Source: an uncultured Candidatus Hydrogenedens sp.
GTDB taxonomy: Bacteria; Myxococcota; UBA4151
DNA length: 64,000 nucleotides
Direction: 5' to 3'
Assembly (NCBI GenBank): GCA_902574205.1
Contig: CACGMS010000002.1
Location: 22,746-86,745 of the forward strand
A program made the translations under genes and the position numbers. How positions within the stretch are numbered: position 1 is the first letter of the stretch; every line of letters starts with the position of its first letter. Below the pieces are notes generated by a model that saw nothing but the letters and a program-made list of their open reading frames with translations, was not told the origin of the DNA and did no database searches. Positions 25,488-50,694 of this stretch are shown piece after piece.

Positions 25488-25489
25488 TC

Positions 25490-27187: not shown

Positions 27188-27190
27188 GTT

Positions 27191-28411: not shown

Positions 28412-28422
28412 AAGGCGATTTC

Positions 28423-28854: not shown

Positions 28855-28857
28855 ATC

Positions 28858-29529: not shown

Positions 29530-30128
29530 TGCGTGGTTTTACTTTACTCGAAGCGCTCGTTGCAATGGGCATTTTAGCCGGGCTGTTCACGGCGATCTAT
29601 GGCGTTCAAGCAAGTGCCGTACGTTCGGTTCGTTATGCTCGTGATTTGCAGCGTGCTGCGCTGCTTGCTCGTGATAAGGTTCTTGAAGTCGAATGGAAGC
29701 TCAAAAAGGATGGGTTTTCAGTTGCTGATATGACGATGGAAGGGGACTTTGATGATGCTCAGGCGCCTGAGTTTAAGTGGCGAGCTGAGATTCGTCGCGT
29801 TAAAGCGGAAGCTTTTGAAAATATGGCGACGCCCGCCATGGACGGTGAAGTGTCGCCGTTAGCTGGTGCTTTTGCCCCAGCATTTTCAATGATCGGTCGA
29901 CGCCTAGCCGATCAGGTTCGTGAGCTTCGTGTGGTCGTTTCGTGGAAAGATGGCACCTATGATGAATCGTTTGATGTCGTGACCCATATTGTTCAACTCA
30001 CTGGGATGGGCTCGTCGGCAGCTAGTCCGGTTCCCAATGCCGGTCCGGGAGGGACATCCCTGCTTCAGCAAATGAAAACGAAGGCTTCGACTACAACTGG
30101 TTCAGCGGCATCGGGAGCGAGAAAATGA
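29526..30128 (+). CDS. gspI: Minor pseudopilin (GspI-like).
   Basis: G|FTLLEALVAMGILAGLF prepilin N-terminus. ATGA coupling. Confidence 0.6.
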   Translation: MMRGFTLLEALVAMGILAGLFTAIYGVQASAVRSVRYARDLQRAALLARDKVLEVEWKLKKDGFSVADMTMEGDFDDAQAPEFKWRAEIRRVKAEAFENMATPAMDGEVSPLAGAFAPAFSMIGRRLADQVRELRVVVSWKDGTYDESFDVVTHIVQLTGMGSSAASPVPNAGPGGTSLLQQMKTKASTTTGSAASGARK

Positions 30129-30814
30129 ACCGCGGGTTTACTCTTCTAGAAGTGATGATTGCGACGGTTGTGGTAGGGATGATTGGTGTTTCTATTTACG
30201 GCGCTGTTGATCGTTCTTTTGAGCTCAAAGAAGAAGTCGCCGCCTATTCTGAGCGTTATCGTCAAGCGTACGTCGCGCTTGACCGGATGACGCGCGAGAT
30301 CAGCTCGGCATTTGTGTCCAAGCATGTCGAGCCCGGCGAGCCACGGGTCGAAACATTGTTCATGGGCGAAGATGATGAACTTCGCTTTACCGCCTTTTCC
30401 AATACTGTTTTGCGCGCTGGCGCCCGTCAGGGCGATCAAGAGACCATTCACTATCGCTTAGATAGCGACCCGGCCGGTCTTGAGACGGAAGGTAAATGTC
30501 TGATTCGTTGGTCGGCACCTCGTCTACTTGAAGATGCTGAAGACGACAGTAAGGGGCGGGATCGGGTCGTGATTTGCGGCGTGGATCGACTCGTCTTTAG
30601 TTATCATGCTCAGCGTGAGGACGATTGGTCAGAAGATTGGAAGACCACGGACTCACTGCGCGAATCGAAAGATTACGGTTTAGGGATTGAAGAGGTTCGA
30701 AAGCGTTTGCCTGATCGGGTTCGTATCGATCTCACTTTGATGATGCCTGATGACGAACCCAAGTTGTTTCGCACAGCCACGAAAGTACGCCTTCACAAGG
30801 CGCTAAACTTCTAA
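30125..30814 (+). CDS. gspJ: Minor pseudopilin (GspJ-like).
   Basis: G|FTLLEVMIATVVVGMIG prepilin N-terminus. ATGA coupling. Confidence 0.6.
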   Translation: MNRGFTLLEVMIATVVVGMIGVSIYGAVDRSFELKEEVAAYSERYRQAYVALDRMTREISSAFVSKHVEPGEPRVETLFMGEDDELRFTAFSNTVLRAGARQGDQETIHYRLDSDPAGLETEGKCLIRWSAPRLLEDAEDDSKGRDRVVICGVDRLVFSYHAQREDDWSEDWKTTDSLRESKDYGLGIEEVRKRLPDRVRIDLTLMMPDDEPKLFRTATKVRLHKALNF

Positions 30815-30820
30815 GGTGGG

Positions 30821-32245
30821 ATGATGCGAAGACGACGCGGTGTAGCTTTGTTGATGGTGCTTGCGACGGTGGCGGTGATGACCACCGTGGTCATGGAGTT
30901 TGTTCATGATAGTCAAGTGCGTAGTCGCATTGCAGCCAACGCTCGTGACTCGGTCCGTGCCTACTTTTTGGCGCGCTCGGGTATGGAGCTTTCGCGCTTG
31001 ATGATTGCGTTTATGAAGCAATCACCGTGTCCGGTGAGTAGTGGTCTTGCTTCGGTTCAAGCCTCTGTAGGCGGTGCTAAAGGTGGGACTTCAAACACCC
31101 CAGCAACCTGTGAAGATGAACTGCGAATTTTGCAGCAAATGCTCAATCTGCCGCCCACACCTTTTTGGAAGATGATTCCGATTACCTCAGAGCTCTTTCA
31201 AGGCGTCGCTGATGGATCATTTGGTTCGATGCTTGGTGTGCCTTCTCCGCCGCTCGTGATGGGCGTCGAAAGTTCTGATCCTTCAGCTCAACTCGCCGAT
31301 GTTGATGAGGGCTCAGGTGTCTTGTTTGGCGATATGCCAGGTTCGTTCAGTGTGGAGATTGATGATGAGGACCGAAAAATTCCGCTGAAAAGCTTATGGA
31401 AGGGTAGTCCTGCTCAGAATCGAGCAGCGATGATGCGTTTTGCCGCTTTGATCGCCCCTCCTCGCTATGACGCACTGTTTGGTGGTGTGAACAGTCGCGG
31501 TGAAGAAGTCGACCGGCAAGAGTTTTTATCGTCGGTCCTTGACTGGATGGATCCGGATACGACCATGTCAGAAATTGATCTTTTGACCGGTCGCCGAGTC
31601 ACGAGCACCTCACCTGAAGATGCACGTTATGATACGGATGAAGCGCCATATCGGTCGCGTAATGCGGTCTTTGATTCGATTGCTGAACTCCGCTTGGTTA
31701 AGGGTTTTTCCGATGAAGCGTACCGCGCTTTTGCTGATCATTTATCGATCTACAGCGAAGACAAAGTGAATATTGAATCGATGCTTGCTGGCTTACTTGG
31801 GCTCCAGCTCCCTGCACCAGACGGCGATATGACCGCAATGAACGCACCCTCTCAATTTTTAGCCGGTTTATCCGTCTGTTTGACAGCTGATCAGTTGGTT
31901 GCTGTCTGGCAGCGTGTTGGCTTGTGGTATCAGGCCATCAATAACTGTGTTTTGGTCGGCTTGTTGCCTGAAGAAATGCAAGTTGATGTGTTGTGTCCAT
32001 TAGAACCTAACCCGCCGATCAATCCGTTTCCCAAGTTCTTTGTCGAAGCCCTCGCTCAGTTGTCTGAAGCCGAAGGCATCGCCTTTGATAAAGGTAAGTG
32101 CGAGAACGCGGTGACCGCTACTTCACGTTATTTTAAACTGATCAGCCAAGCTCAAGTCGGCGATGCTCGCCGAACGTTGACGATGGTTATTCGCCACGCG
32201 CCTACGGATGCCCAGGAAGAGCGCTACTATTGGCGAGAGGAGTAA
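30821..32245 (+). CDS. gspK: Minor pseudopilin GspK (large, lacks Glu+5).
   Basis: MMRRRRGVALLMVLATVAVMT. 474 aa. Typical GspK size and position. Confidence 0.65.
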   Translation: MMRRRRGVALLMVLATVAVMTTVVMEFVHDSQVRSRIAANARDSVRAYFLARSGMELSRLMIAFMKQSPCPVSSGLASVQASVGGAKGGTSNTPATCEDELRILQQMLNLPPTPFWKMIPITSELFQGVADGSFGSMLGVPSPPLVMGVESSDPSAQLADVDEGSGVLFGDMPGSFSVEIDDEDRKIPLKSLWKGSPAQNRAAMMRFAALIAPPRYDALFGGVNSRGEEVDRQEFLSSVLDWMDPDTTMSEIDLLTGRRVTSTSPEDARYDTDEAPYRSRNAVFDSIAELRLVKGFSDEAYRAFADHLSIYSEDKVNIESMLAGLLGLQLPAPDGDMTAMNAPSQFLAGLSVCLTADQLVAVWQRVGLWYQAINNCVLVGLLPEEMQVDVLCPLEPNPPINPFPKFFVEALAQLSEAEGIAFDKGKCENAVTATSRYFKLISQAQVGDARRTLTMVIRHAPTDAQEERYYWREE

Positions 32246-32247
32246 TT

Positions 32248-34263
32248 ATGGCTGCCCAACTAGGCCTAATTGATTTGAGTACAAAACGGTTGCGTATACT
32301 CGCTGCAGAGGCGGGTGGTCGGCGCGATGAACCTAGCTTGCTGCGTCGCGAAGAGTCACTCGAGGAGGGTCTTGATAGTCTTCCTGACGTGCTTGACCAG
32401 TTGCTCGAAGAGGGTGTGCTGAGCCCTGGTCGCTGGCAGTTGGCATTAAGCGGTGATTTGGTCACTTTTCATCGGATGCATAGTCCGTTGAAAGACCAAC
32501 GCAAAGTGCGGCTTACATTAGAGTTTGAGCTAGAAAACGCGCTTCCCTTTCGCAGTGAGGATGTCGTTGTTTCTCCGATTTTGCGTAAAGCTGAAGACGG
32601 AACCGATATTTTAGCGTTCGTCACGCGTCGCGACGTTCTTGAGCCTTTGATCGACTGTTTCCAGGCGCGCCGAATCGAAACTGTACAGGTCGTTCCAAGT
32701 GCATTTGGTGCTGTTCCTGTCGATTTGTGCGCAAGTGGACGTCATCTGCTCCTTGATCTTGGAAAAGAGCAGATTGATGTGGTGGCGATTGAGGATGGAT
32801 CGATCGAGACGATGGTTACTTTACCGGGTGGCGGAGACTTGGTCACTGCCGCGCTGCGCCGCAGTCACTTCCTTGATGTTCAAGAGGCAGAGCACGCCAA
32901 GGTTTTTGAGGGAGAAACCGTAGAGGGGCGAGAGGCTCTTGCACCAGCGATTGAAGCTTTTACCGAGCATGTTCAGCGAGCGGTTCGAGGGGGCTTGAGG
33001 ACAGCCAATTGGCGCCAAGCTACAGTGCATCTAAGCGGAGGAGCAGCCTGCTTGACAGGATTGGTTGAGCGGTTGCACGAGCGCACGGGATTACGTGTCT
33101 TTCGTGTTGAAAATGTCGATTCGCTGACACCCAGTGCGCAAGAGGCATGTGCACTTGCTGCAGAGGTTGGTCATCTGCGCTCTGTGGTCAAAGGAGGTGG
33201 CTTTAAGCCGGTCAACTTACGAGCAGGCGACCTTGCACATACCACAGATGTGATGAAGGTTTTACAGGGCTTTCGCCCGGTTGCTGGTTGGGCTGCAGCC
33301 GTCTTGATTTTAGTCCTGATGCAGTTTTTTGCCGGGGTGTCGGCGCGCGATGCGCGAGCGGCTCGGTTTGAGTCGGCACGACGGCAGGCTTGTGCCGATA
33401 TCGCGGGGATAACGAGCGCGAACGCAAGGCAGTGTCTCGCAGCGATGAACGAGACCATTGCAGGTACCGGATCGGGCGATATCCCGCGTTTTGACGCCAT
33501 CGATCTGTTTTCACGCATCTCCCAAGCGGTTCCGACAGATTTGGAGGTTAAGCTTGATGATATTCGTATTGATGGGCGATCGTTACGTTTAGCTGGAACT
33601 ACGACTGGCTTTCAACAGGCACGTAGTCTCGTTGACGCGTTATCGGTGGTGCGTTGTGTCGTTGGTTTACGCTCGGATAAGACGGTCAAAAAGGGTGATA
33701 AGGTGATGTTTTCACTGACGGGACGAATCGATTGTTCGGTCAAGCCTACAGACCCGGAGGCGCCCGCATCGCCGTCCGGTCAAAGTCGGGTTCAAAGCGC
33801 TACTCCCAGCGAGTCATCGGGTGCGTCGATCGATTCAAAGCGAAAGGAGAAAAAAGCACCTTCGCTGCCGGTTAAGGACCCGTCATCAGCTAAGGATTTT
33901 GGCAAAGGATTTAGGGGGTCATCACCGACGCAGACACAGCGTCAAGCAGAACAGCAAAAACGACTACGCGCCCAGGGGGATTCGGCAAAGGTCATTGAAG
34001 GTCCGGGCGAGGATGCAGAAGCCGAGGATAACACGGAAGCCGACGAGACCACGGAAGCCACGGGTTACGATGAACCGATTGTTGACCCTGCAACAGGAGT
34101 TACTGTCCCTTCAAGAATTCCAAATCCTTACCCAGGGATCAAACCCTTTCCGGGTGGCTCGCTCAAGCTTCCAAATGGGATCGGTAATGTGATGAAATTA
34201 CCGGAAGATACTTTGGTTGGTGTCCCTCCAGCGGACATGGACACTGAGGAGGGCGACGAATGA
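32248..34263 (+). CDS. gspL: GspL-like assembly platform protein with a roughly 200-aa disordered C-terminal extension.
   Basis: ATG 32248 after GAGAGGAG is the likely start; the ORF track's 32230 is TTG. Actin-like cytoplasmic domain, then TM (GWAAAVLILVLMQFFAGV), a periplasmic domain and a long Pro/Ser/acidic tail. Confidence 0.62.
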   Translation: MAAQLGLIDLSTKRLRILAAEAGGRRDEPSLLRREESLEEGLDSLPDVLDQLLEEGVLSPGRWQLALSGDLVTFHRMHSPLKDQRKVRLTLEFELENALPFRSEDVVVSPILRKAEDGTDILAFVTRRDVLEPLIDCFQARRIETVQVVPSAFGAVPVDLCASGRHLLLDLGKEQIDVVAIEDGSIETMVTLPGGGDLVTAALRRSHFLDVQEAEHAKVFEGETVEGREALAPAIEAFTEHVQRAVRGGLRTANWRQATVHLSGGAACLTGLVERLHERTGLRVFRVENVDSLTPSAQEACALAAEVGHLRSVVKGGGFKPVNLRAGDLAHTTDVMKVLQGFRPVAGWAAAVLILVLMQFFAGVSARDARAARFESARRQACADIAGITSANARQCLAAMNETIAGTGSGDIPRFDAIDLFSRISQAVPTDLEVKLDDIRIDGRSLRLAGTTTGFQQARSLVDALSVVRCVVGLRSDKTVKKGDKVMFSLTGRIDCSVKPTDPEAPASPSGQSRVQSATPSESSGASIDSKRKEKKAPSLPVKDPSSAKDFGKGFRGSSPTQTQRQAEQQKRLRAQGDSAKVIEGPGEDAEAEDNTEADETTEATGYDEPIVDPATGVTVPSRIPNPYPGIKPFPGGSLKLPNGIGNVMKLPEDTLVGVPPADMDTEEGDE

Positions 34264-34805
34264 AGTCCTTGTGGGATGCGTTTTCTAATTTGTCGCCCAA
34301 CGATAAGCGGGCGTTGACTATTTTAATTGTATTCACTGCGACGATGGCATTGCTCTTTGGAGGCGTGGGGATGCGGAACATGAGTCGCACTTCGGAGCGC
34401 CAAGCGATAAAGGCGCAAGAGCAATACGCCAAAGTTCTTAATCTGGCTCAGGATTACGCCACCGCAAAAGCGCAAAAAGAGGCGTTGCAGCGACGGATCC
34501 GCAGCAGCCGTGTGCGGCTCGAAAGTGATATTGAAGCTGCGGCGAGTACGCTCGATATCGATATTCACGATATGAAGAATCAGAGTCCAGCGCCGGCAAA
34601 AGGTGATGCGCTGCGTGAAGAACGGCTCCGAATCACGATCAAAGCGATTACCATGGATCGCTTTACCGAGTTGATGAGTAAATTATTAGATAATCGGTCA
34701 GGTGATCTGATTCGTGTGCGAGAAATCAGTCTCAAGACTCAGTTTGATGACCGCGAAAAGGTTAAGGCGATCTTTGTCATATCGACGTGGCGGAGGAATT
34801 CGTAA
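34260..34805 (+). CDS. gspM: GspM-like protein.
   Basis: 181 aa. N-terminal TM (ALTILIVFTATMALLFGG). ATGA coupling to gspL. Confidence 0.6.
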   Translation: MKSLWDAFSNLSPNDKRALTILIVFTATMALLFGGVGMRNMSRTSERQAIKAQEQYAKVLNLAQDYATAKAQKEALQRRIRSSRVRLESDIEAAASTLDIDIHDMKNQSPAPAKGDALREERLRITIKAITMDRFTELMSKLLDNRSGDLIRVREISLKTQFDDREKVKAIFVISTWRRNS

Positions 34806-35752
34806 TGCAGCAGCTATGGCAGCGTAAATCGGTTCGTCTCCTGATCTATTCGTCGTGGACAACATTGATCTTCGTACTCTCTTTGGTGTGGACGTACCCT
34901 TCTGATGCGCTGGTCGCCGAAGTCGAAGCTGCTGTAAACAATAGTGGCACGCTAAAGAGCTTTGAAGCGCGTAAAGCATCGTTATCCGGACTCGGCGTAG
35001 CCATTGATGGAGTATCGTTGGTGACGGCGAAAGGTGATCCCAACTTGCCCTGGAAATTCAAGAGGGTTTGGGTGGGCCTCAACGGTTTTAGCTTTGATCC
35101 TAAAAACCCAAGTCTGAGGTTTGCTGTCGATGCGTACAAGGGATCGGTGAGTGGTTCTTATTCTGATCGACAATTAGATGTTGAGGTCGATGCGTTAGAC
35201 CTCGGTGGCATCATGCCTTTGCAAAAAATAGTTAAGGTTGGCTTGAGCGGACAGGCGAATGGTGAAGCGGCATTTAAATTTGCTGAAAAGCCGTCGGGTA
35301 TGCGCGGCCTGAGCGGTCGCGTCGACCTCGCCATCAAGTCGGCAGGTGTTGGTCCGGGGGAAGTCCCTATTCCGGGGTTTGGATCGGCATTGACTTTACC
35401 TCCTGCTCAAGTGGGTGACCTGCCTCTTGATCTCGAAATTAATAAAGGCGAGTTTGAGTTGAAAAAGTTCAAAGTCACTGGTGGTGATGTCGAGCTTGCG
35501 GGCGAAGGGACTGTTTCCTTCGTCGGTCGGCGTTCATCCGGACGAATGGATATGGCCTTTGATCTGCGACCGACTGACAAGCTCAAAGCAACCCAGGAAG
35601 GTAAGAACCTTTTGACTGCTTTGGATCCGAAGTCGCCATTATTGCCCTCACGTATCAAGCGGAGTTTTTCGAAAAAAGGATGGTTGGGTATTTCGGTAAC
35701 AGGCCGAGTTAATCGTCCGCGTCTCAAAGTACGCAAAAGTCGTATCGATTAG
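34805..35752 (+). CDS. gspN: GspN-like protein.
   Basis: ATG 34805 (TAATG overlap, GGAGGA RBS) is the likely start; the ORF track's GTG 34787 is less likely. N-terminal TM (VRLLIYSSWTTLIFVLSLVW). Last gene of the gsp operon. Confidence 0.55.
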   Translation: MQQLWQRKSVRLLIYSSWTTLIFVLSLVWTYPSDALVAEVEAAVNNSGTLKSFEARKASLSGLGVAIDGVSLVTAKGDPNLPWKFKRVWVGLNGFSFDPKNPSLRFAVDAYKGSVSGSYSDRQLDVEVDALDLGGIMPLQKIVKVGLSGQANGEAAFKFAEKPSGMRGLSGRVDLAIKSAGVGPGEVPIPGFGSALTLPPAQVGDLPLDLEINKGEFELKKFKVTGGDVELAGEGTVSFVGRRSSGRMDMAFDLRPTDKLKATQEGKNLLTALDPKSPLLPSRIKRSFSKKGWLGISVTGRVNRPRLKVRKSRID

Positions 35753-38123: not shown

Positions 38124-39152
38124 GTGTCTAACTGGCTCTCACGCCTCGCTTTGACTACCGACCTAGCTATTGACCTAGGGACAGCAAATACGGTGGTCGC
38201 CGTGCGCGGACAGGGGATTGTACTCGACGAACCTTCGGTGGTTGCCATTCGAAGGGGCTCGCGGCCGACGAAAGTCCAAGCCGTGGGGCGAGAAGCCAAA
38301 GATATGTTGGGGAAAACTCCAGCAGCGATCAAAGCGATTCGGCCGATGCGTGAAGGGGTGATTTCGGACGTCGATGTCACCGAGGAAATGATTCGTCGCT
38401 TTATTGAAAAGGCGGTGGGGCGTCGGCCGCTTCGTGCACGAATGCTCATCTCTGTGCCGGCGGGTATCACTCAAGTTGAACGCAAAGCCGTACGCGATGC
38501 GGCACTCAAGGCGGGAGTTAAGGAAGTTCATTTGATCGAGCAGCCGATGGCTGCAGCAATCGGCGCCGGCTTGCCCGTCAGTGAACCGCGTGGGTCGATG
38601 ATCGTGGATATCGGTGGCGGCACCACCGATGTAGCGGTGATCAGTCTGGGCGCGATGGCAACAGAGTATACGCTTCGGACCGCTGGTGATGCGATGGATC
38701 TCGCGATTCAGCAGTATATTCGTGAGCGAAAGGGTATTTTAGTGGGTTTACCCACGGCTGAGAAAATCAAGATGAAGATCGGCTCGGCGCATCCTCTTGA
38801 AGAAGAACTTGAGATGGATGTGCGCGGACGAGACGCGTTGCAAGGTGTCCCCCGGTCTGAGGTTGTGACGTCGGTTGACGTCCGTGAGGCGGTTGCCGGT
38901 TGTATCGCCGAAATTGATCAAGCAGTCCGAAAAGTCCTTGAGGAAACCGATCCAGAGCTTGCCAGTGACTTAATGGAGCATGGAATCTTGCTTGCGGGTG
39001 GTGGTTCTCAGTTGCTTGGGTTGGACGCCCACTTAACTGAAGTGACGCAAGGCCTGAAGGTGCGTTGCGCAGAGACTCCCCTGCATGCGGTGGTCCACGG
39101 CGTGCTTGTGGCGCTTGAGCAACTCGATACCTACAGAGAACTTCTGCAGTAG
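38124..39152 (+). CDS. mreB: Rod-shape/actin-like protein MreB.
   Basis: GTG start after GGGAGA. DLAIDLGTANTVVAVRGQGIVLDEPSVVAI matches the MreB phosphate-1 motif. Full-length conservation. Confidence 0.92.
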   Translation: MSNWLSRLALTTDLAIDLGTANTVVAVRGQGIVLDEPSVVAIRRGSRPTKVQAVGREAKDMLGKTPAAIKAIRPMREGVISDVDVTEEMIRRFIEKAVGRRPLRARMLISVPAGITQVERKAVRDAALKAGVKEVHLIEQPMAAAIGAGLPVSEPRGSMIVDIGGGTTDVAVISLGAMATEYTLRTAGDAMDLAIQQYIRERKGILVGLPTAEKIKMKIGSAHPLEEELEMDVRGRDALQGVPRSEVVTSVDVREAVAGCIAEIDQAVRKVLEETDPELASDLMEHGILLAGGGSQLLGLDAHLTEVTQGLKVRCAETPLHAVVHGVLVALEQLDTYRELLQ

Positions 39153-40558: not shown

Positions 40559-40612
40559 CCAAGACGGTTGTGGCGCCTAGAAGCGCACGCTTCTCGACCC
40601 AATGGAGAGATC

Positions 40613-42595
40613 ATGAATGAAGCTAAAGGCGGCGCAGGAGCCTATCTCCTCGTCATGTTAATTGCCGGCGGTGCCGGTTTCTATTTTGGACAGCAAAGTG
40701 CCGGTACACCGGCAACAGCAGCAGTCGACGGTGATATCGATTGCAACTCTGACGCCGTTCAAGAGTGTCTCAATGCTGAACCGATTTACAAGATTCCAGT
40801 TGGTGATGCGGCGACTAAAGGTAACCCTGAGGCGCTGGTGACGATCGTTGAAGTTAGCGATTTCCAATGTCCCTTCTGTAATCGAGTCAATAAGACCATC
40901 GATCAGTTGATGAAGGGTAAGTACGGCAAAGATTTGCGAGTCGCATTTTATCACAACCCCCTTGGTTTTCATAATCGCGCTGAGCCTGCGGCGGTCGCTG
41001 CGGAAGCGGCGGGTCGACAAGGCAAGTTCTGGGAAATGCATGACAAATTGTTCGCTAACTTGCGAAACCTGACCGACGCCAACTTTGATAAGTGGGCAGG
41101 TGAACTTGCTTTGGATATGACCAAGTTTAAAGCGGATCTCAAAGATCCCGCGTTGCTCAAGAAAGTTAAGGCACAGCAAGCCACAGCGGTGAAGCTCGGT
41201 GCCCGAGGTACCCCAGCTTTCTTCATCAACGGTCGCTTCTTGAGCGGCGCTCAGCCGCTCGCTAAGTTTGAAGAAGTGATCGAAAAGGCGCTCAAAGACG
41301 CCAAGAAGCAGATCAAGAAGGGCGTTGCTGCAAAAGATGTCTACGCAAAGATCATCGAAAAGGGCGCAACCTCGAAGGTGAACAACCCGGCTCCTGCCGC
41401 AGCGCAGCCGCCTGCGCGTCCCAAGCCTCCGGCGGATACGCGTCAAAACGTGCCGGTCAAGAAGAGCTACCGCGGTAAAGGGACCTGGCCTGCTAAGGTG
41501 GTGATCGTTGAGTACTCTGACTTTGAATGTCCCTTCTGTTCACGTGGTGCAAAGACTGTCGAAGACATCATGAAGAATCACGGCAAAGACGTGTACTTTA
41601 TCTACAAGCACAACCCCTTAGGCTTCCACCCCAATGCTGAGCCTGCCGCACGCGCTTGTGAAGCCGCGGGTATGCAGGGCAAGTTCTTTGAAATGCACGA
41701 CAAGATGTTCGCTGATTATAAAAATCTCACGCAAGAGAACTTTGAGAAATGGGCGAAAGAACTGGGTCTGAATGTCGCCAAGTTCAAGAAGGACATGAAC
41801 TCGCAAAAGGTCAAAGATATCGTCAAAGCTGACGTCGCCGAAAGCGCGAAGGTTGGCGCTCGGGGTACCCCGAACTTCTTCGTCAACGGTATTCCCGTTC
41901 GCGGGGCGCTCCCTTATGATCGCTTCAAGCCAACCATCGAAGCCGAACTCAAAAAGGCGGACGCGTTGATCAAGAAGGGCGTGAAGCTCAAAGATGTGTA
42001 TGCTGAAGTGATGAAGGAGGCCGGTAAGCCTGCTCCGAACTTCAAGCTGCCGAACGCGCCGGTCAAACCTAAGGGTCCAGTCAAAGTCGATGACCACCCA
42101 GAGGACATGGCATTTGGTCCGAAGAACGCCAAAGTTACGATTTACGAGTTTAGTGACTTTGAATGTCCCTTCTGCTCAAAGGGTGCCGACACCATCACGG
42201 CGCTTAAAAAAGAGTATGGCGATAAGATTCGAGTGGTGTTCAAGAACTTGCCGCTGTCCTTTCATAAGAACGCAGAACTTGCGGCGAGAGCAGCTCATGC
42301 AGCCGGTAAGCAAGGTAAGTTCTGGGAAATGCACGATAAACTGTTCGCTAACTTTCGCACTTTGGGCGAAGCATCGATTAAGGGCTTTGCCAAAGAAATT
42401 GGTGTGGACATGGCGAAGTGGGAGAAAGATCTCAACAGTGAGTCGACCAAAGCGAAAGTTGAAGCCGATAAGAAACTCGCCAATAAGGTGGGTGCTCGGG
42501 GAACGCCCAACTTCTATATCAATGGTGATCACCTTGCCGGTGCTCAGCCGATCGATCGGTTCAAGGCGATTATCGATAAGCATTTGAAGAAATAA
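40613..42595 (+). CDS. Membrane-anchored protein with three tandem DsbA-like thioredoxin-fold domains (thiol:disulfide oxidoreductase).
   Basis: ATG 40613 after GGAGAG. TM (AYLLVMLIAGGAGFYF). Three repeats, each with a C-P-F-C active site (DFQCPFCNR, DFECPFCSRG, DFECPFCSKG), the ...FH... motif and the cis-Pro loop (GARGTP). Confidence 0.8.
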   Translation: MNEAKGGAGAYLLVMLIAGGAGFYFGQQSAGTPATAAVDGDIDCNSDAVQECLNAEPIYKIPVGDAATKGNPEALVTIVEVSDFQCPFCNRVNKTIDQLMKGKYGKDLRVAFYHNPLGFHNRAEPAAVAAEAAGRQGKFWEMHDKLFANLRNLTDANFDKWAGELALDMTKFKADLKDPALLKKVKAQQATAVKLGARGTPAFFINGRFLSGAQPLAKFEEVIEKALKDAKKQIKKGVAAKDVYAKIIEKGATSKVNNPAPAAAQPPARPKPPADTRQNVPVKKSYRGKGTWPAKVVIVEYSDFECPFCSRGAKTVEDIMKNHGKDVYFIYKHNPLGFHPNAEPAARACEAAGMQGKFFEMHDKMFADYKNLTQENFEKWAKELGLNVAKFKKDMNSQKVKDIVKADVAESAKVGARGTPNFFVNGIPVRGALPYDRFKPTIEAELKKADALIKKGVKLKDVYAEVMKEAGKPAPNFKLPNAPVKPKGPVKVDDHPEDMAFGPKNAKVTIYEFSDFECPFCSKGADTITALKKEYGDKIRVVFKNLPLSFHKNAELAARAAHAAGKQGKFWEMHDKLFANFRTLGEASIKGFAKEIGVDMAKWEKDLNSESTKAKVEADKKLANKVGARGTPNFYINGDHLAGAQPIDRFKAIIDKHLKK

Positions 42596-42633
42596 ATCGA
42601 CCGCCAATAGCGGTGGATCATGCTTGAAGAAGG

Positions 42634-42668
42634 GAGCCTCATGACGAGGCTCTCTTTTTCATTTTTTG
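42634..42668 (+). terminator. Rho-independent terminator.
   Basis: GAGCCTC-atgac-GAGGCTC perfect 7-bp stem followed by tctttttcattttttg. Confidence 0.65.
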
Positions 42669-42731
42669 TGACCCGTTGACGTCTCGTAGCTAAGGCCGCT
42701 TTATCACTCAGGTCGTAAGGGGTTCATCGCT

Positions 42732-43355: not shown

Positions 43356-44035
43356 TTTTTGGTCTACTTTTTGTTTTGGCGACTCCGCAAACCACGGAAA
43401 TTCGCACAGAGATCCAAGTCGAAGCAACCCAACCACCGGATCGTCGGGCTGAATTAGCCGGCGAGATCAGTCGCGCGCAAAGCGAGCTCGAAGAGGTTCG
43501 TCGGGTGATGCAGAGTCTTCCAGAGGGCGAAGAAAAGGAAGCCGAAAGCAAACGAATTAAAGCATTAGATGACCAGATAAAGGAAATGCGAAAATTGGTC
43601 TTGCAGTTGCCGGACCCGCCTCGAGATTTGGTTCAGCCGGTTGAGCAACTTCCATCCGTCCAGGTTGACGCGACCAGCGTGTCGTCGGCGCAGACCGCTT
43701 CGGTGGGCTCATCTTCATCGGTTTGGATTGGGTGGGGCTTTGGCTTAATCATCGGTGCCTTTTTAGCGTTTGCCTTCGCTTTTCGTGTGTTGCCAGGTCA
43801 GCTTCCCGAAGGTGCCATGCGCATGCCTCAGTTGGCTGTAATCGCTGCGCTGCTTGCGGCTATAGGCCCCCAGTTACAGTCGCTCAATTATGATCAGTTG
43901 CCTATTGTATTGGGTTGGGTTGCGCTGAGTGTAGGTGCGGTTATTCGACTGGGTATGCGTCGCGTACGTTCACAGATCGAACTTTTTTCGTTAGACCGAC
44001 TTCGTGCTCAAAGTCAGGAGGACGAGGATGAGTAA
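43346..44035 (+). CDS. Hypothetical membrane protein with a signal peptide, a coiled-coil and two C-terminal TM helices.
   Basis: The ATG 43346 start gives [19 protein letters not shown]. The ORF-track start 43133 would overlap the UDG gene by 220 bp and is unlikely. Confidence 0.5.
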
Positions 44036-44870
44036 CGACGGATTAGTCCAAGCGATTACCGCTGAGGTGCAGCGTCGGCTCAAAGATCCTGTAACCGGTC
44101 AGCCCAAGCGAAGTTGGCACAGTGAAGATGCTCGATTGCCTCATCGTCAACGAGCGGCAGTTGAAAAGCCAGCACCTCAAGGTCCCGATGTACCACCCCC
44201 GAGTTCGAAACAACTGGCTCAGTTGATTGATCATACGCTGTTGCGCCCAGAAGCTACGGACGAGCAGTTGCGAAAGGTGTGTGCTGAGGCGCGTCGGTAT
44301 CAGTTCAAAACGGTCTGTGTTAACTCGTGCAACGTACGATTGGTCGCCCAGGAGCTTAGCGGCAGTTCGGTCTTACCGATCGCCGTGGTTGGCTTTCCGC
44401 TCGGCGCTCAGAATCCCGACGCCAAAGCATATGAAACCCGTCAGGCGATTCGCGATGGCGCCAAAGAGATTGATATGGTGATCAACATAGGCGCCTTAAA
44501 GTCGACGCGCTATGCCGAGGTTTTAGACGATATTCGAGCTGTGGTTGAAGCCGCTGCACCTGCGCCGGTTAAAGTCATTCTTGAAACGTCACAGTTGACC
44601 GAAGAAGAGAAAGTGATTTCTTGCGCGTTATCCAAAGCTGCTGGCGCCGCGTTTGTGAAAACGAGCACCGGATTCGATAAGGCAGGCGCAACGGTTGAGG
44701 ACATCACGCTCATGCGTCGTGTGGTTGGTCCGGACCTTGGCGTCAAAGCATCGGGCGGTGTGCGCAGTAAAGCCGATGTCGAAAAGATGGTTCGAGCAGG
44801 CGCCACCCGTGTGGGTGCGAGTTCGTCGGTGACGATTGTTACCGGGGGTACTGCCTCGGGAAGCTATTAG
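44028..44870 (+). CDS. deoC: Deoxyribose-phosphate aldolase DeoC.
   Basis: [12 protein letters not shown]...FKTVCVN...VVGFPLGA...KVILETSQL...FVKTSTGF...GVKASGGVR matches the DeoC fingerprint and catalytic Lys. ATG 44028 after AGGAGG is plausible. The protein has a roughly 50-aa N-terminal extension. Confidence 0.82.
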
Positions 44871-44879
44871 CGTTATCCG

Positions 44880-46178
44880 ATGAACCCTGTTGATCTAATT
44901 GCGAAGAAGCGCGCAGGCCAAGCGCTGAGCGATGAAGAGATCGCATGGTGGATCGCCGCCTACACGCACGCCGAGGTCCCCGATTATCAGATGGCGGCGA
45001 TGGCCATGGCGATTTGCTTTCAAGGGCTCAATGCGCGCGAAACGAGTGTCTGGACGACCGCCATGAGAGATTCGGGTAAGCCGATTTCCTTTGAGGGCAT
45101 GGCGGGCTTTCGAATTGATAAACACAGTACCGGTGGCGTTGGCGATAAGATATCGATTCCCTTAGCTCCCATCGTTGCTGCTTTGGGTTTACAGGTACCC
45201 ATGATTTCGGGTCGAGGCTTAGGACTGACCGGAGGAACTCTTGATAAACTTGAATCCATTCCTGGTTATCGAACCGATCTGAGTTTAGACGAGTTTAAGC
45301 GCACCGTCCTGACTACGGGTTGTTCAATTATTGGTCAGACCGGTCAGCTTGCGCCTGCCGACCGCAAACTCTATGCGCTGCGTGATGTCACCGCGACCGT
45401 CAGCTCGATTCCGTTAATTGTTGCCTCGATTTTATCAAAGAAGTTGAGTGAGGGGCTTGATGCTCTGGTTCTCGATGTCAAGTTTGGCTCGGGCGCATTC
45501 ATGTCCGACTTTGATCAAGCCAATGATCTAGCTCAAGCGCTGGTTTCGGTTAGTCAGTTGAATGGAGTCGCCTGTTCGGCGTTGATCACCGATATGAATC
45601 AGCCGATTGGCCGCTGTATCGGTAATGCGTTGGAGATCAAGGAGAGTATCGAGGTGCTCAAAGGTCAAGGACCAGCCGATACTTGGGAGCTCACCGAAGC
45701 GCTCGCGGTGCGCATGTTGCGATTATCTGGTGAAGCCAAGCACGATGATGAAGCCCGAGAAGCGATTCATGCCGTCGTCGATTCAGGGCGCGCACTAGCA
45801 CGGTTTTCGGAGATGATTTCGGCTCAAGGTGGCGACGCGCAAATCATTGACGATGAGACTCGGATGCCCCAGGCGCCTCGTATTGAAGAGGTCAATGCGC
45901 AGTGCACGGGTATGCTCAAGCGAATTGATGCCCAAGCGGTGGCGCGAGCTGGTCATAGTGTGGGGGTTGGGCGTGAGCGAGCCGATCAAGCTGTGGATTT
46001 AGCGGTGGGTGTGGAGTGGTTGGTTGAACCTGGACAGGAACTGGCACCAGAGACACCGATTGCTCGTTTGCATTGGCGCGATAAAGGTCGAGACGAAGCG
46101 CTCGATTATTTGCGTGCAGCGTTGATTATGGATGGTGAGGTTCAGCCGAGAACAGGGCGTATAAGGGCACAGGTTTAA
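44880..46178 (+). CDS. deoA: Thymidine/pyrimidine-nucleoside phosphorylase.
   Basis: IDKHSTGGVGDKISIPLAPIVAALG is the conserved phosphate-binding segment. 432 aa. Confidence 0.87.
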   Translation: MNPVDLIAKKRAGQALSDEEIAWWIAAYTHAEVPDYQMAAMAMAICFQGLNARETSVWTTAMRDSGKPISFEGMAGFRIDKHSTGGVGDKISIPLAPIVAALGLQVPMISGRGLGLTGGTLDKLESIPGYRTDLSLDEFKRTVLTTGCSIIGQTGQLAPADRKLYALRDVTATVSSIPLIVASILSKKLSEGLDALVLDVKFGSGAFMSDFDQANDLAQALVSVSQLNGVACSALITDMNQPIGRCIGNALEIKESIEVLKGQGPADTWELTEALAVRMLRLSGEAKHDDEAREAIHAVVDSGRALARFSEMISAQGGDAQIIDDETRMPQAPRIEEVNAQCTGMLKRIDAQAVARAGHSVGVGRERADQAVDLAVGVEWLVEPGQELAPETPIARLHWRDKGRDEALDYLRAALIMDGEVQPRTGRIRAQV

Positions 46179-47671
46179 TGTTCGCGCTTGCCGTGAGTAG
46201 TGCCCTGCTCTTTGCCGCGCCAGCGCCGGTAGATCCAGCACCATCGCCTACAGTGTCAGCGGTCGACGCGGCTCAACTCAAGGTCATGATGCGTGATATG
46301 CATCGCGTTGGCGAAGCCCAGGCACAGGTCGCTGCGCCGGTTCCGATTACGAGTTCGTGGGGTCGTCGAGCGGTCTCCTTTCTCGGTATTTTGGTTATGA
46401 TCGTTTTAGCCTTCTTGATGTCTGAGAATCGTCGGTCTGTACCTTGGCGCCTGGTGGGGTTAGGTTGTTTGCTTCAGCTTACCTTCGGGCTTTTGGTCCT
46501 CAAGACCGATGCAGGCGCAGCCCTTTTTAGTTTGGTCAACGAGTTGGTTAACGGCTTGCTCGCTTTTACGACTGAAGGTTCGCGGTTTTTGTTTGGTAAT
46601 TTGGTGACGAACAATGTCCCGGTGGGCGGGCCTCTAGGCGACCCGGTTATGGGTCCGGTCATTGAAGCCAATCAAACCGGGTGGGCAAGTGTGGGTGCGT
46701 ATTTTGCCTTTGGCGTGTTGCCGACCTTGATCTTCTTTTCATCGATCACCGCAGTCGGCTACCATTTGGGTATCTTGCAAAAATTGGTAGGCGCTGTCGC
46801 TTGGCTGATGCGACGAACGCTGCGCACTTCAGGACCTGAAAGCTTGTCTGCGGCGGGTAATATTTTCTTAGGTCAAACGGAGTCTCCCCTTTTGATTCGC
46901 CCCTATGTTCAGCGGATGAGCGATAGTGAATTAATGGCGGTGATGGTTGGCGGTTTTGCGACCGTTGCGGGTGGCGTCATGCTGGCTTTTGTTGGCATGC
47001 TAAGCGGCTATTTCCCAAACATTGCTGGTCACCTTTTAGCGGCAAGTGTGATGTCGGCGCCCGCCGCGTTAGTGATGGCTAAAATTATGGTTCCGGAATT
47101 ACAGGAGCGTTCAGAGGATGAAGTGGTCGAAGTCCACGATGAGAGTGAAGCCGTCAACGTCATCGATGCAGCCGCTCGAGGCGCTGGAGATGGTCTAACC
47201 TTAGCCTTGAACGTAGGCGCCATGCTCATTGCATTTGTAGCCTTGGTCGCCTTGATCAATGCTATTTTCGCCTGGTTTGGTGGGTTCTTTGGGTTTCCCG
47301 AGTTGAGCATGGAATGGTTGCTCGGTCGCTTGCTTGCCCCTTTGGCGTGGGTCATGGGTGTTGATTGGGCTGACGCCGCATTTTGTGGTGCACAACTTGG
47401 CGTGAAAACGGTGACTAACGAGTTTGTCGCTTTTCTCAACGTTGCCGGGAATTTAGGAGCCGAAGGCTCCATATCCGGGCGAAGTGCGGTGATTTTGACC
47501 TATGCGCTTTGTGGGTTCGCCAATTTTTCGTCGATTGCCATTCAAATCGGCGGAATTGGATCGATCGCACCGTCGAGGCGCTCCGATTTGGCGCGACTTG
47601 GTCTTCGTGCGATGATCGCTGGGAACCTAGCGGCTTATATGACGGCTTGTGTGGTCGGTATTTTGCTTTAG
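46178..47671 (+). CDS. nupC: Concentrative nucleoside transporter (NupC/CNT family).
   Basis: VSFLGILVMIVLAFLMSENRRSV...LVNELVNGLLAFTTEGSRFLFG matches the NupC N-terminal region. Multiple TMs. TAATG-coupled. A roughly 65-aa N-terminal extension makes the true start uncertain. Confidence 0.8.
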   Translation: MFALAVSSALLFAAPAPVDPAPSPTVSAVDAAQLKVMMRDMHRVGEAQAQVAAPVPITSSWGRRAVSFLGILVMIVLAFLMSENRRSVPWRLVGLGCLLQLTFGLLVLKTDAGAALFSLVNELVNGLLAFTTEGSRFLFGNLVTNNVPVGGPLGDPVMGPVIEANQTGWASVGAYFAFGVLPTLIFFSSITAVGYHLGILQKLVGAVAWLMRRTLRTSGPESLSAAGNIFLGQTESPLLIRPYVQRMSDSELMAVMVGGFATVAGGVMLAFVGMLSGYFPNIAGHLLAASVMSAPAALVMAKIMVPELQERSEDEVVEVHDESEAVNVIDAAARGAGDGLTLALNVGAMLIAFVALVALINAIFAWFGGFFGFPELSMEWLLGRLLAPLAWVMGVDWADAAFCGAQLGVKTVTNEFVAFLNVAGNLGAEGSISGRSAVILTYALCGFANFSSIAIQIGGIGSIAPSRRSDLARLGLRAMIAGNLAAYMTACVVGILL

Positions 47672-47719
47672 CAGCCGGTTTTGTGGAGACTACGGGACCG
47701 TCCGTTATAGGAGACAGAG

Positions 47720-48568
47720 GTGATTGCTGCTCAAGACCTGGTTGCTCAGGTTGCTCAAGCTACCGAATCGGTACGCAGCGCTGGAATTGGCGAGGTGGAC
47801 TTTGCTGTTGTCTTGGGTTCGGGGTTGTCAGCTTTTGCGGATGACTTGGATCAACCGATCCGCCTTCCATACAAAGATATACCGGGGTTCAAGACGGCCA
47901 CCGTCAAGGGTCATCGCGGTGAACTCTTGTACGGTGAGCTCGCAGGTTACCGCATCCTGGTATTTTCGGGGCGCATGCATTTGTACGAAGGGATTGAGCC
48001 GTGGCGCGCAGGGTTGCTGCCTCGTCTCGCCGCTGCTCTTGGTGCGCGACTGTTCCTGGTGACAAACGCTAGTGGCGGTATTCCTGGCAAAGGTTTAGAG
48101 CCGGGTGACTTGATGCGCATCACGGATCAGATCAACGCCCAAGGCACGAATCCTTTGGTTGGCGACCATGACGAGCGCTTGGGGGCACGATTCCCCGACA
48201 TGGGCCAGCCTTACGACCGCGCATTGGGTGCGCATCTTGATACGTTGGCAGCTCGCCTCGGAGTCCCTTTGAAGCGAGGTGTGTATATTGGGGTTTTGGG
48301 GCCGGGCTATGAGAGCCCAGCAGAGGTTCGAATGTACGGACTGATGGGCGCTGATACCATTGGCATGAGTACGGTTGGCGAAGTTTTGGTCGCTCGCCAG
48401 GTGGGTCTTCCTGTCGTCGGCGTGAGCTGTATCTCGAATTACGCGGCAGGGAACGATGGAGAAGAGGTGTTAACGCACGCTGATGTGACTGAAGTCGTGG
48501 GCGCTGCGGCTAAACGCTTTGTTCAGCTTCTTCGATCAGCAGTGCCTTATTTGATGGAGCGATTGTGA
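47720..48568 (+). CDS. Purine nucleoside phosphorylase (trimeric PNP-I/PunA family).
   Basis: GTG start after AGGAG. VVLGSGLS...HRGELLYGEL...MSTVGEVLVARQVGLPVVGVSCISNYAAG motifs. Confidence 0.87.
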   Translation: MIAAQDLVAQVAQATESVRSAGIGEVDFAVVLGSGLSAFADDLDQPIRLPYKDIPGFKTATVKGHRGELLYGELAGYRILVFSGRMHLYEGIEPWRAGLLPRLAAALGARLFLVTNASGGIPGKGLEPGDLMRITDQINAQGTNPLVGDHDERLGARFPDMGQPYDRALGAHLDTLAARLGVPLKRGVYIGVLGPGYESPAEVRMYGLMGADTIGMSTVGEVLVARQVGLPVVGVSCISNYAAGNDGEEVLTHADVTEVVGAAAKRFVQLLRSAVPYLMERL

Positions 48569-48723: not shown

Positions 48724-50694
48724 ATGCGGATAGCGGGACTTTCGCTGTGGTGTTTTGTGATGATGTCGTGTGCGCCGACGGTGAACGCGCCAGAGCTTTT
48801 GCAGGATACAGGGAGTGGCCCGCCGTCTGCTGCAGACGCGGCGGTGGTTGCGGATAGCGGCGCGCCTCCCGCGACGACGGATGCGGGTGTTCTGGATGCA
48901 ACCGATCCTGAGTCCGAGTGTTTGAGCGACATCAACTGCCCACGTGGTCAATATTGTTTGGATTCTCGCTGCGTTGATCAATGCGTTGATGATTCCGGTT
49001 GTCCCGAGGGCAGCATTTGTGAGGTGAATGGCCGCTGTCGCGTCGGCTGTCGTAACGATGCGGCGTGCGGCGCAGGCTCGATCTGTATTGATGAAAGTTG
49101 CACGCCAGGCTGTCGCGATGACGAGGCCTGCGAAGGCCGTCAGATCTGTAATGATAATCGGTGCGTTAATGGTTGTCGCGGTGATGCGATCTGTCCAGCC
49201 GGTCAAATTTGTCTCGATGATGTCTGTCGGTCGGGTTGTCGAAGCGATGAAACCTGTCCGGATGCGCACATCTGTGAAGATGACATCTGTCGCGTCGGTT
49301 GTCGCGAAGACGACGGCTGCGCTGCTCGGCAAATCTGCGTTGAGACGCGCTGTCAGGCGGGTTGTCGAAGCAACGAAGGCTGCGGCCTAGGTCAGCTTTG
49401 CGCCAACAACATCTGTATTCCAGGGTGCATTGAGACGGCTCGTTGTCCTGAAAATCAGGTCTGTCGTGCCGGGCAGTGCGCCGACGGCTGTCGCAGCAAC
49501 GAGGCATGCGCGATTGGTCAGGTCTGCAACGAGGATGGGTTGTGTATTCCTGGCTGTCGCGACGATGAGGGTTGTCCTCAGGGACAGTTCTGCAACGACG
49601 CAAGTCAATGCGCGCCTGGCTGTCGAGCTAATGCCGAATGTCCTCAGGGACAAGCGTGCATCGACAACAGTTGCCAAGACGGCTGTCGTGCAGACGCCGA
49701 ATGTCCCGTGAACAACGTCTGCGCCGACGGTCGCTGCATCAACCAGTGTCGCACGGCGGAACAGTGCAACGTCGGTCAGTATTGTGAGGGCGCTCAAGGA
49801 AACCAGTTGGGTGTATGCGTCGATGGATGCGTCGAGGACAGCAATTGCGGCGACGACAGGATCTGCTCGAACCGAGCGTGTGTTGAAGGTTGCCGCAACG
49901 ATGATGCGTGCCCTCGAGGGTATGCCTGCATCGACAATCAGTGCGCCTATCGTTGCACGCAACAAAACGGCTTTACATGTCCGGGCGGGCAAGTCTGCAA
50001 TCGCTTAGCAAGCCAATGTGTCGAGTGCTTACAAGAGAGTGATTGTGACGCCGGGTTGTTGTGTAATCGGCAAACGCTCACCTGCGAGCGCTGCCAGAAT
50101 AACGCACAGTGTGGTCAAGGCCGTGTGTGCTCAGAGGCGCGAGGCTGCGTGGGCTGTGCGCAAAATAGTGACTGTGCGCAAAACCAGCAATGTGATGTTC
50201 AACGAGGCGTCTGTGTCGATGGTGCGAACGGTGCACTGTATTGCCAGGCATGTAATGATCAAACCCCGTGTGCAGGGGGTATGCGCTGCGTTGGTTTCGG
50301 TCGAGATACACCGCGCAATCGATGCCTGAATACCTGTCAAGATGCCGATGATTGTATTAGCGGTACCCGCTGCGCTGATGGGGTCTGCCAACCGGTGAAC
50401 TACTTAGGGAATACGTGGTGGACAGGGCGGGTAACCGGCAGTAGGCAGGCGAGCTCTTGCGAGGCTGTTTTGAATACGGGAACGCCGTGTCAGAACGCCG
50501 CAACCTGTGACCGGATTGATGATCGTGGCTTCACTGCCGGTCATTGCGGTAGCCAGGGCGCCGCACGCGGGATGTGTACCAAGGTCTGTCGTCTGGATCG
50601 CACCTATAACCCAGCAGAGTGCCCGGTGGGTTGGTCATGTGCCAGTGTACCCCGTTGGGGAGGCAGGTACGGTCAATGCGAGCCTAACCAGTAA
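48724..50694 (+). CDS. Secreted cysteine-rich repeat protein, with at least 12 tandem 21-aa four-Cys modules (Myxococcales-type Cys-rich repeat).
   Basis: ATG 48724 after GAGGAG. Signal peptide MRIAGLSLWCFVMMSCAPTVNA. Modules of the type GCRxDxxCxxGQxCxDxxCxx recur from about aa 100 to 360. Further Cys-rich motifs run to the C-terminus. Confidence 0.8.
   Translation: MRIAGLSLWCFVMMSCAPTVNAPELLQDTGSGPPSAADAAVVADSGAPPATTDAGVLDATDPESECLSDINCPRGQYCLDSRCVDQCVDDSGCPEGSICEVNGRCRVGCRNDAACGAGSICIDESCTPGCRDDEACEGRQICNDNRCVNGCRGDAICPAGQICLDDVCRSGCRSDETCPDAHICEDDICRVGCREDDGCAARQICVETRCQAGCRSNEGCGLGQLCANNICIPGCIETARCPENQVCRAGQCADGCRSNEACAIGQVCNEDGLCIPGCRDDEGCPQGQFCNDASQCAPGCRANAECPQGQACIDNSCQDGCRADAECPVNNVCADGRCINQCRTAEQCNVGQYCEGAQGNQLGVCVDGCVEDSNCGDDRICSNRACVEGCRNDDACPRGYACIDNQCAYRCTQQNGFTCPGGQVCNRLASQCVECLQESDCDAGLLCNRQTLTCERCQNNAQCGQGRVCSEARGCVGCAQNSDCAQNQQCDVQRGVCVDGANGALYCQACNDQTPCAGGMRCVGFGRDTPRNRCLNTCQDADDCISGTRCADGVCQPVNYLGNTWWTGRVTGSRQASSCEAVLNTGTPCQNAATCDRIDDRGFTAGHCGSQGAARGMCTKVCRLDRTYNPAECPVGWSCASVPRWGGRYGQCEPNQ

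Follow-up and report, generated by a model that had tools for sequence, protein, structure and literature searches.

The stretch of DNA analysed here (the window) comprises 64,000 nucleotides of contig CACGMS010000002.1 (positions 22,746 to 86,745 of the forward strand, assembly GCA_902574205.1), from an uncultured bacterium deposited as Candidatus Hydrogenedens sp. and placed by GTDB in the Myxococcota (UBA4151). The gene of interest lies on the + strand at 40613–42595, stop codon included, and encodes a protein of 660 residues; it is defined by the list of open reading frames (ORFs), the translation, three Pfam stretches and the starts of its orthologs. The analysis confirms that this ORF codes for a single membrane-anchored protein with three DsbA/Thioredoxin_4 domains, each of which has a CPFC motif and a Thr-Pro loop. 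The ATG start is backed by orthologs at 79–95% identity, the N-terminus being common to 11 orthologs, and the sequence GGAGAG (40604–40609, +), located 3 nt 5' of the ATG, reads as a ribosome-binding site. On the 3' side, a hairpin resembling an intrinsic terminator occupies 42625–42671 (+): its 16-bp stem contains 7 G-C pairs and is followed by TTTTTTGTGA, the hairpin with its T-run being found at 42625–42661. This strong hairpin and T-run, directly 3' of the DsbA gene, end the transcription unit, and the gene is thus a transcription unit of its own.

Pfam detects Thioredoxin_4 (PF13462, E = 3e-75, 252 bits for a cutoff of 23.2) and DSBA (PF01323, E = 5e-67, 226 bits for a cutoff of 25.6), each in three stretches. 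Domain 1 covers residues 57–250 (40781–41362, +) and domain 2 residues 286–470 (41468–42022, +), both with a C-terminal extension helix, and domain 3 covers residues 498–660 (42104–42592, +). The third domain is the top-scoring stretch, both against Pfam and against the sequences of the Protein Data Bank (PDB). The CPFC active sites are at residues 86–89 (40868–40879, +), 306–309 (41528–41539, +) and 518–521 (42164–42175, +). An earlier note on this DNA, made from the letters alone, had described three tandem DsbA-like domains with three CPFC motifs, and this description is borne out by Pfam, by the translation and by the structural model presented below. On careful alignment, the CxxC motifs of domains 2 and 3 are intact: the three sites are invariant in an alignment of 12 sequences (11 three-domain proteins and the four-domain protein P0014) as well as in a family alignment of 102 sequences.

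Each domain also has a Thr-Pro pair in a predicted cis-Pro loop, the cis geometry being deduced from conservation and from the position before a β strand. Thr200-Pro201 (41210–41215, +) is invariant in both alignments, Thr419-Pro420 (41867–41872, +) is invariant, and Thr631-Pro632 (42503–42508, +) is invariant in the 12 sequences and present in at least 90% of the 102. The sequences around these pairs, GARGTPAFFING (residues 196–207), GARGTPNFFVNG (residues 415–426) and GARGTPNFYING (residues 627–638), have the pattern GARGTP(A/N)F(F/Y)(I/V)NG in common. Another motif reads HNPLGFH at residues 114–120 and 333–339, and NLPLSFH at residues 545–551. The earlier note had quoted the two types of motifs, and they are present, but what it called the HNPLGFH/LPLSFH helix is the end of a strand plus a loop in the model. 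In the alignment of 102 sequences, the catalytic motifs are retained by every domain, whatever its position. This conservation in every domain is the main argument for all three being active: with their conserved CxxC and Thr-Pro loops and confidently predicted DsbA folds, the three domains look redox-competent, as had been proposed.

The AlphaFold2 model, built on the 102-sequence alignment, has a mean predicted local distance difference test score (pLDDT) of 89.5 and a predicted template modelling score (pTM) of 0.49. The three domains have pLDDT values above 90, whereas residues 259–274 and 476–483, in the linkers, are disordered; together with the pTM of 0.49, these disordered stretches indicate flexible tethering. 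Each domain consists of strands, helix α1, an insert of four to five helices, and then strands and a helix, which is the DsbA fold. Each CxxC is at the N-terminus of helix α1 (helices 87–101, 307–323 and 519–538), and each Thr-Pro pair stands ahead of a β strand (202–205 in domain 1). A Foldseek search of the PDB returns DsbA-fold matches with a probability of 1.00 and target TM-scores (template modelling scores) up to 0.86; the matches of domain 1 include 4PWO, 3GYK and BdbD. Foldseek and a phmmer search of the PDB sequences concur on Corynebacterium diphtheriae DsbA (TsdA), Silicibacter pomeroyi 3GYK, Bacillus subtilis BdbD, and ScsC from Caulobacter, Salmonella and Proteus. These nearest solved structures are all single-domain DsbA-fold enzymes, ScsC being oligomeric in some species. 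The same searches found no tandem catalytic DsbA domains among solved structures; UGGT, whose DsbA-like domains are non-catalytic, is the only structure with an alignment extending beyond a single domain, and this alignment is poor. By its sequence, fold and active sites, the protein belongs to the DsbA-like superfamily, Thioredoxin_4 subtype.

The protein begins with a hydrophobic helix, a predicted signal-anchor or transmembrane segment (residues 8–28, 40634–40696, +; hydropathy peak of about 1.6), which is also a helix in the AlphaFold2 model. The sole strongly hydrophobic segment lies within the first 28 residues, and there is no other transmembrane segment. A short Ala/Thr/Pro linker (residues 27–40) follows. 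The anchor and the linker announced in the earlier note are therefore present, in a predicted orientation: Lys5 is on the N-terminal side of the helix, and seven residues are predicted to be cytoplasmic, with no output domain. A hydrophobic N-terminus is found in 224 of the 255 family members that start with Met. Upstream of domain 1, a Cys44-x7-Cys52 pair (40742–40768, +) is specific to the clade. In the alignment of 12 sequences, Cys44 is invariant and Cys52 occurs in at least 90%; the two residues possibly form a structural disulfide. Cys349, in domain 2, is not conserved. The domains are connected by a Pro/Ala-rich linker (residues 251–285, 41363–41467, +) and a Pro/Lys-rich linker (residues 471–497, 42023–42103, +), which contain the two disordered stretches, with pLDDT values below 50.

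The three domains are 50–52% identical to one another in protein sequence, 55–59% in DNA sequence, and 38–42% at third codon positions. The higher identity of the proteins, compared to that of third codon positions, implies that the duplication is ancient and that the repeats have been held by selection; the triplication is neither a recent repeat nor an assembly artefact. Within the three-domain clade, the identity is 72–78% between domains of the same position, and 46–49% across positions. The high same-position identity of every domain, despite the divergence of third codon positions, indicates that all three are under purifying selection. In P0014, the nearest four-domain relative, the second and third domains both match domain 2 of the window protein (68% and 65% identity), and the presence of two copies of domain 2 indicates that the number of domains shifts by internal duplication or loss. 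An alignment of 213 domains shows that in four-domain proteins the domains of one protein are 56–62% identical, compared to 55–59% for the same position across species, which suggests repeated duplication, gene conversion or some homogenisation among the repeats. The domain that is “missing” from the three-domain clade is not assignable, the identity to every four-domain position being about 0.50, and only P0014 is informative in this respect.

The window gene belongs, as a typical representative, to a tandem-DsbA family that is widespread and mainly myxobacterial. This family is an operational one, defined in this analysis by a transmembrane anchor, at least two DsbA domains with a CP[FY]C motif, and Pro-rich linkers; the homologs have two to six domains. 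An indexed homolog search returned 5619 proteins at E ≤ 1e-10. The best 120 of them have four domains in 103 cases, three in 11 (the query itself, which would be the twelfth, is left out), five in 5 and six in 1, and CP[FY]C is intact in nearly every domain of these 120 homologs. The full-length identity to family members from named Myxococcota is 40–63%. A search of 1.84 billion cluster representatives gave 3374 clusters at E ≤ 1e-30, the best 150 of which are all multi-domain, and three domains occur in 108 of the 145 new representatives clustered at 50% identity. The genomic context was examined at 84 related loci (79 from one-genome-per-species contigs and 5 fetched earlier; individual loci are designated by L numbers), which encode three-domain proteins in 50 cases, two-domain proteins in 21 and four-domain proteins in 13. 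The multi-DsbA loci belong to Myxococcota and a few Chloroflexota, the carriers including Archangium minus Cbm 6, Vitiosangium and Nannocystis, which are cultured, as well as Polyangiaceae, Sandaracinaceae, Anaeromyxobacteraceae and Bradymonadia. The tandem triplication, which the earlier note considered uncommon, is thus frequent in a large family. It had also been noted before: one sentence in the 2009 atlas of the thioredoxin fold by Atkinson and Babbitt (PMC2757866) mentions bacterial proteins in which the DSBA domain occurs two or three times. The atlas lists the architecture only, without taxonomic, structural or functional analysis. This sentence is the sole mention found in the searchable literature, which yielded no experimental characterisation of either tandem DsbA proteins or the Dsb systems of myxobacteria.

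Multi-DsbA genes may also be adjacent to one another. Two or three of them adjoin in L028 (9632–15933), L031, L033, L065, L040, L043, L047, L050 and L005 (6465–10001). The proteins of L028 have 3+3+2 domains and those of three Nannocystis/Nannocystaceae loci 2+3+2, which makes up to eight catalytic domains per locus.

Among characterised proteins, the best match in both sequence and fold is C. diphtheriae DsbA/TsdA (4PWO, 4PWP, 7UNN, 7UNO), with E = 6e-20, about 32% identity and a root-mean-square deviation of about 1.9 Å over 170 columns. Like the window domains, this cell-envelope enzyme has a CPFC motif, a Thr-Pro loop and a DsbA fold with a helical insert; unlike the window protein, it has a single catalytic domain and its own N-terminal extension, and it is actinobacterial. 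B. subtilis BdbD (3EU3/3EU4; E = 7e-15, target TM-score 0.78) has a Thioredoxin_4-type DsbA fold and consists of one domain, which is about 26–27% identical to a window domain. BdbD, an oxidase associated with the membrane, has a CPSC motif and a Ca2+ site; BdbC is its partner, and its function is opposed by that of ResA.

A gene for a transmembrane-anchored thioredoxin of the ResA/CcmG/TlpA type, with a WATWCPPC motif, is located 5–344 nt downstream of the DsbA gene in 8 of the 13 four-domain loci (L007:12630-13238, L008:12954-13559, L011:12779-13375, L014, L017, L023, L024 and L025). The two genes likely form a conserved redox operon. In Bacillus, a BdbD-type oxidase is paired with ResA, and the arrangement of the four-domain and WATWCPPC genes resembles this pairing; by analogy, the opposition of ResA to BdbD would be echoed by the ResA-like gene beside the four-domain relatives. 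A scan for WCxxC motifs found no gene of the WATWCPPC type in the window, and together with domain hidden Markov models it found no second thioredoxin-like gene there.

The proteins ScsC (Proteus mirabilis 4XVW/5ID4, Caulobacter 7RGV, Salmonella 4GXZ) and Salmonella BcfH (7JVE) have a DsbA-fold catalytic domain of the same subfamily as the window domains. The three catalytic domains of trimeric ScsC, carried on flexible arms, are a non-covalent counterpart of the tethered domains of the window protein, but the multivalency of ScsC comes from an N-terminal trimerisation helix, whereas that of the window protein is covalent and comes from repeats internal to the gene. ScsC, which ScsB maintains in the reduced state, has a link to copper stress; beside the window gene there is neither scsB nor scsA nor scsD. 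Membership of the ScsC/DsbC class is ruled out, as only the transmembrane helix and a short linker with the CX7C pair precede domain 1, with no oligomerisation domain.

Protein disulfide isomerase (PDI) resembles the window protein in that one polypeptide has several thioredoxin-fold domains and more than one CxxC; the resemblance concerns a possible way of working, PDI acting on multi-disulfide secretory proteins. The domains of PDI are plain thioredoxins (PF00085) which lack the DsbA helical insert, and are accompanied by non-catalytic b/b' domains, whereas the window domains are all catalytic DsbA folds. A eukaryotic-type PDI is ruled out by this difference in domain type and by the absence of b/b' domains; in architecture, the two are not homologous. 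Although it belongs neither to the ScsC/DsbC class nor to the PDIs, the window protein may work like these multivalent enzymes. Lastly, the best NCBIfam model for each window domain is NF041057 (Rcas_1661 family thioredoxin-like (seleno)lipoprotein), and membership is ruled out because the single domains score 98.3, 77.7 and 102.2 bits, below the 190-bit cutoff. The score of 274.6 bits for the whole protein is an artefact, being the sum over three repeats. The window protein also lacks both a lipobox and selenocysteine.

In the usual picture, DsbA is a single-domain oxidase; the poly-DsbA family puts several complete units on one membrane tether. The most likely role of the window protein, with a probability of about 0.55, is that of a general multi-site periplasmic catalyst of oxidative folding. 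One N-terminal helix would tether it to the inner membrane, with three independently folded DsbA modules arranged on Pro-rich linkers like beads on a string. Each oxidised CPFC would give its disulfide to cysteine pairs of proteins leaving the Sec translocon. With three sites per tether, several oxidising equivalents would be available per encounter, which would suit substrates with many closely spaced cysteines. For their re-oxidation, the sites would depend on a membrane enzyme linked to quinones, of the VKOR or DsbB type, whose gene would be at another place in the genome. Myxococcota, the phylum in which most of the family is found, are known for their many cysteine-rich secreted proteins. 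TsdA, for its part, supports oxidative folding in vivo, as a safeguard (PMC9974433).

Several observations weigh against a role as an oxidative-folding catalyst, beginning with the re-oxidant, a dsbB or VKOR partner which the earlier note had proposed to look for. A screen of the long ORFs of the window for several transmembrane segments and a CxxC, combined with Pfam, found no VKOR or DsbB; the ORFs with several transmembrane segments all fall into other families (ExbB, GspF, MFS, a PMT-like glycosyltransferase, and NupC, the latter assigned from the ortholog in L001). No VKOR or DsbB was found within 10 kb of the 84 related loci either: three ORFs in these regions have at least three transmembrane segments and a CxxC, none of which is VKOR or DsbB, and PF07884 and PF02600 do not appear in the gene tables of L001–L010. 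Nor is there any fusion to VKOR or DsbB in 17 long family members, which have kinase fusions and extra DsbA domains instead. In addition, the topology and the activity of the protein are predictions, and the CPFC dipeptide does not fix the redox potential. It is isomerases, such as DsbC (a dimer), ScsC (a trimer) and PDI, that are characterised by multivalency, and not DsbA. The activities of the closest solved homolog are mixed: besides its role in vivo, C. diphtheriae DsbA has isomerase/reductase activity in vitro (PMC4546943). Relatives of the ScsC type are isomerases held in the reduced state by ScsB, as is the case of Caulobacter ScsC (PMC3322552).

Oxidase and isomerase cannot be separated by sequence alone, and the alternative that survives best, although we consider it unlikely, is that the protein is an isomerase or reductase, and as such a covalent equivalent of PDI, of trimeric ScsC or of dimeric DsbC. 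Its CxxC modules would be kept reduced by a transporter of the DsbD/CcdA/ScsB type and would reshuffle wrong disulfides, or oxidase and isomerase modules would be mixed, as in PDI. Such a function fits the presence of the ScsC proteins of Caulobacter, Salmonella and Proteus among the closest solved structures, the ScsB-dependent isomerase activity of the Caulobacter protein, the in vitro activity of the C. diphtheriae enzyme (the best PDB match, with the same CPFC) and the multivalent arrangement of thioredoxin folds, a typical trait of isomerases. Next to the four-domain relatives is a gene for a TlpA/ScsD-like thioredoxin, and the automatic family name given by JGI is “protein-disulfide isomerase”. 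However, no DsbD/CcdA/ScsB-like gene was found in the window, where the ORFs with several transmembrane segments are all assigned elsewhere; the protein lacks both a dimerisation or trimerisation domain and anything like the non-catalytic, substrate-binding b/b' domains of PDI; and its three domains are near-equivalent in sequence and in conservation, with no sign of specialisation. TsdA, moreover, is an oxidase in vivo.

It is improbable that the array is mainly a module that binds or senses (the redox state of the envelope, copper or unfolded proteins) rather than a bulk catalyst. This idea comes from distant family members that carry a kinase. In eight cluster representatives and the ORF L072:8906-11842, three DsbA domains with intact CxxC are preceded by a region that matches a Hanks-type kinase profile; in seven of these the fusion to the kinase is clear and full-length, and a transmembrane helix between the kinase and the array was checked in six. 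The kinase-fusion members are P0195, P0196, P0231, P0238, P0259, P0262 and P0264 (possibly also P0205) and the ORF of L072, all with intact CP[FY]C motifs. The use of a three-DsbA array as the ectodomain of a kinase suggests sensing of redox or folding in the envelope. A receptor kinase of Mycobacterium tuberculosis has a redox-sensitive DsbG-like ectodomain (PMC1847690), and Caulobacter crescentus ScsC is reported to have a subpicomolar affinity for Cu(I) (PMC8900818). The window protein, however, has only its seven cytoplasmic residues, without output domain, and there is no adjacent kinase gene in the window; that every catalytic motif is strictly conserved agrees with a catalytic role.

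The earlier note had proposed a dedicated catalyst for a cysteine-rich protein encoded 6 kb away. This gene (48724–50694, +, the start being most likely at 48724) encodes a predicted lipoprotein, with a lipobox (...MMSC/...FASC) aligned with that of the L001 ortholog. The protein contains 100 cysteines by count, and not about 110 as had been reported, and has about 17 near-perfect repeats of 21 residues with four cysteines each (spacing C-x5-C-x5-C-x4-C-x3); its Pfam matches to DUF7107 and Dumpy DPY and its NCBIfam match to TraA are weak. Such an exported protein certainly needs disulfide catalysis, and the gene order is conserved in L001, the locus of a relative that is 88% identical and fully syntenic. 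The pairing is kept only there. In L005 and L006, whose DsbA orthologs are 62% identical, the order is rearranged (MreB, 3×DsbA, 2×DsbA, aldehyde dehydrogenase) and there is no Cys-rich ORF within 10 kb; beside the four-domain genes, there is none in L007 and L008, and those of L009 overlap annotated genes and look spurious. That the two genes form a functional module is very improbable, considering the terminator directly 3' of the DsbA gene, the six unrelated genes in between (UDG, an unknown gene, deoC, thymidine phosphorylase, nupC and PNP), the rearranged orthologs and a DsbA family far wider than the pairing. The Cys-rich lipoprotein is one plausible substrate among many, and not a specific partner. 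More generally, all-versus-all clustering of 4580 flanking ORFs gave no neighbour conserved across the whole family, but only the clade-specific TlpA-like, class-B penicillin-binding protein and MreB genes.

In a broader reading, which we put forward as tentative and rather doubtful, the poly-DsbA proteins of Myxococcota would be a convergent bacterial counterpart of PDI: membrane-tethered strings of two to six modules would processively oxidise, and possibly proof-read, the exoproteome of Cys-rich repeat proteins, unusually large in these bacteria, with disulfides perhaps relayed outward from the membrane-proximal module, and the kinase-fused arrays would report the periplasmic folding load to the cytoplasm. 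Resolving the oxidase or isomerase nature of these proteins, and their re-oxidant, would widen the range of known bacterial designs for oxidative folding; multi-site foldases could be of use for producing disulfide-rich proteins, and the kinase fusions hint at redox signalling in the envelope.

Other features of the neighbourhood are as follows. A type II secretion gene cluster (window 22132–35752) is located 5 kb upstream of the DsbA gene. Those of its products which Pfam recognises are a GspC-like PDZ protein, the secretin GspD, the ATPase GspE, GspF and a protein similar to PilM/GspL; the small ORFs in between, GspK and GspM are assigned by position or from the orthologs in L001 and L002; an adenylate/guanylate cyclase gene comes after the cluster. 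A type II secretion cluster is also found 4–8 kb from the DsbA gene in the rearranged loci L005 and L006.

Cell-wall elongation genes stand beside three-domain DsbA genes in two clades. In the clade of the window, MreB is encoded upstream of the DsbA gene (window 38124–39152; L005:5338-6366), and in Myxococcaceae/Archangium loci (L012, L015, L020, L021, L026, L027 and L051) a gene for a class-B penicillin-binding protein transpeptidase is divergently oriented upstream. The MreB sequence of the window falls in a protein cluster that has members named as uncultured Myxococcota bacterium. Directly upstream of the four-domain genes of L007, L008 and L009 is a small Pro/Ala-rich ORF with a signal peptide (L007:9377-9889, L008:9267-9821, L009:9389-9919; 170–185 residues), which has a few cysteines and, at its C-terminus, a ...PPR motif; it matches no Pfam family and is only weakly conserved.

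Downstream of the DsbA gene, the region 44004–48568 of the window is a block of nucleoside salvage or catabolism genes (deoC, thymidine phosphorylase, a NupC-type transporter and purine nucleoside phosphorylase); the block of L001 has an extra cytidine deaminase gene, which is not found in the window. The window has a strongly positive GC skew, of about +0.12 to +0.18, over its first 54 kb or so; the skew then falls to about 0 by 60–64 kb, which coincides with the switch of the genes from the + to the − strand at about 53.8 kb.

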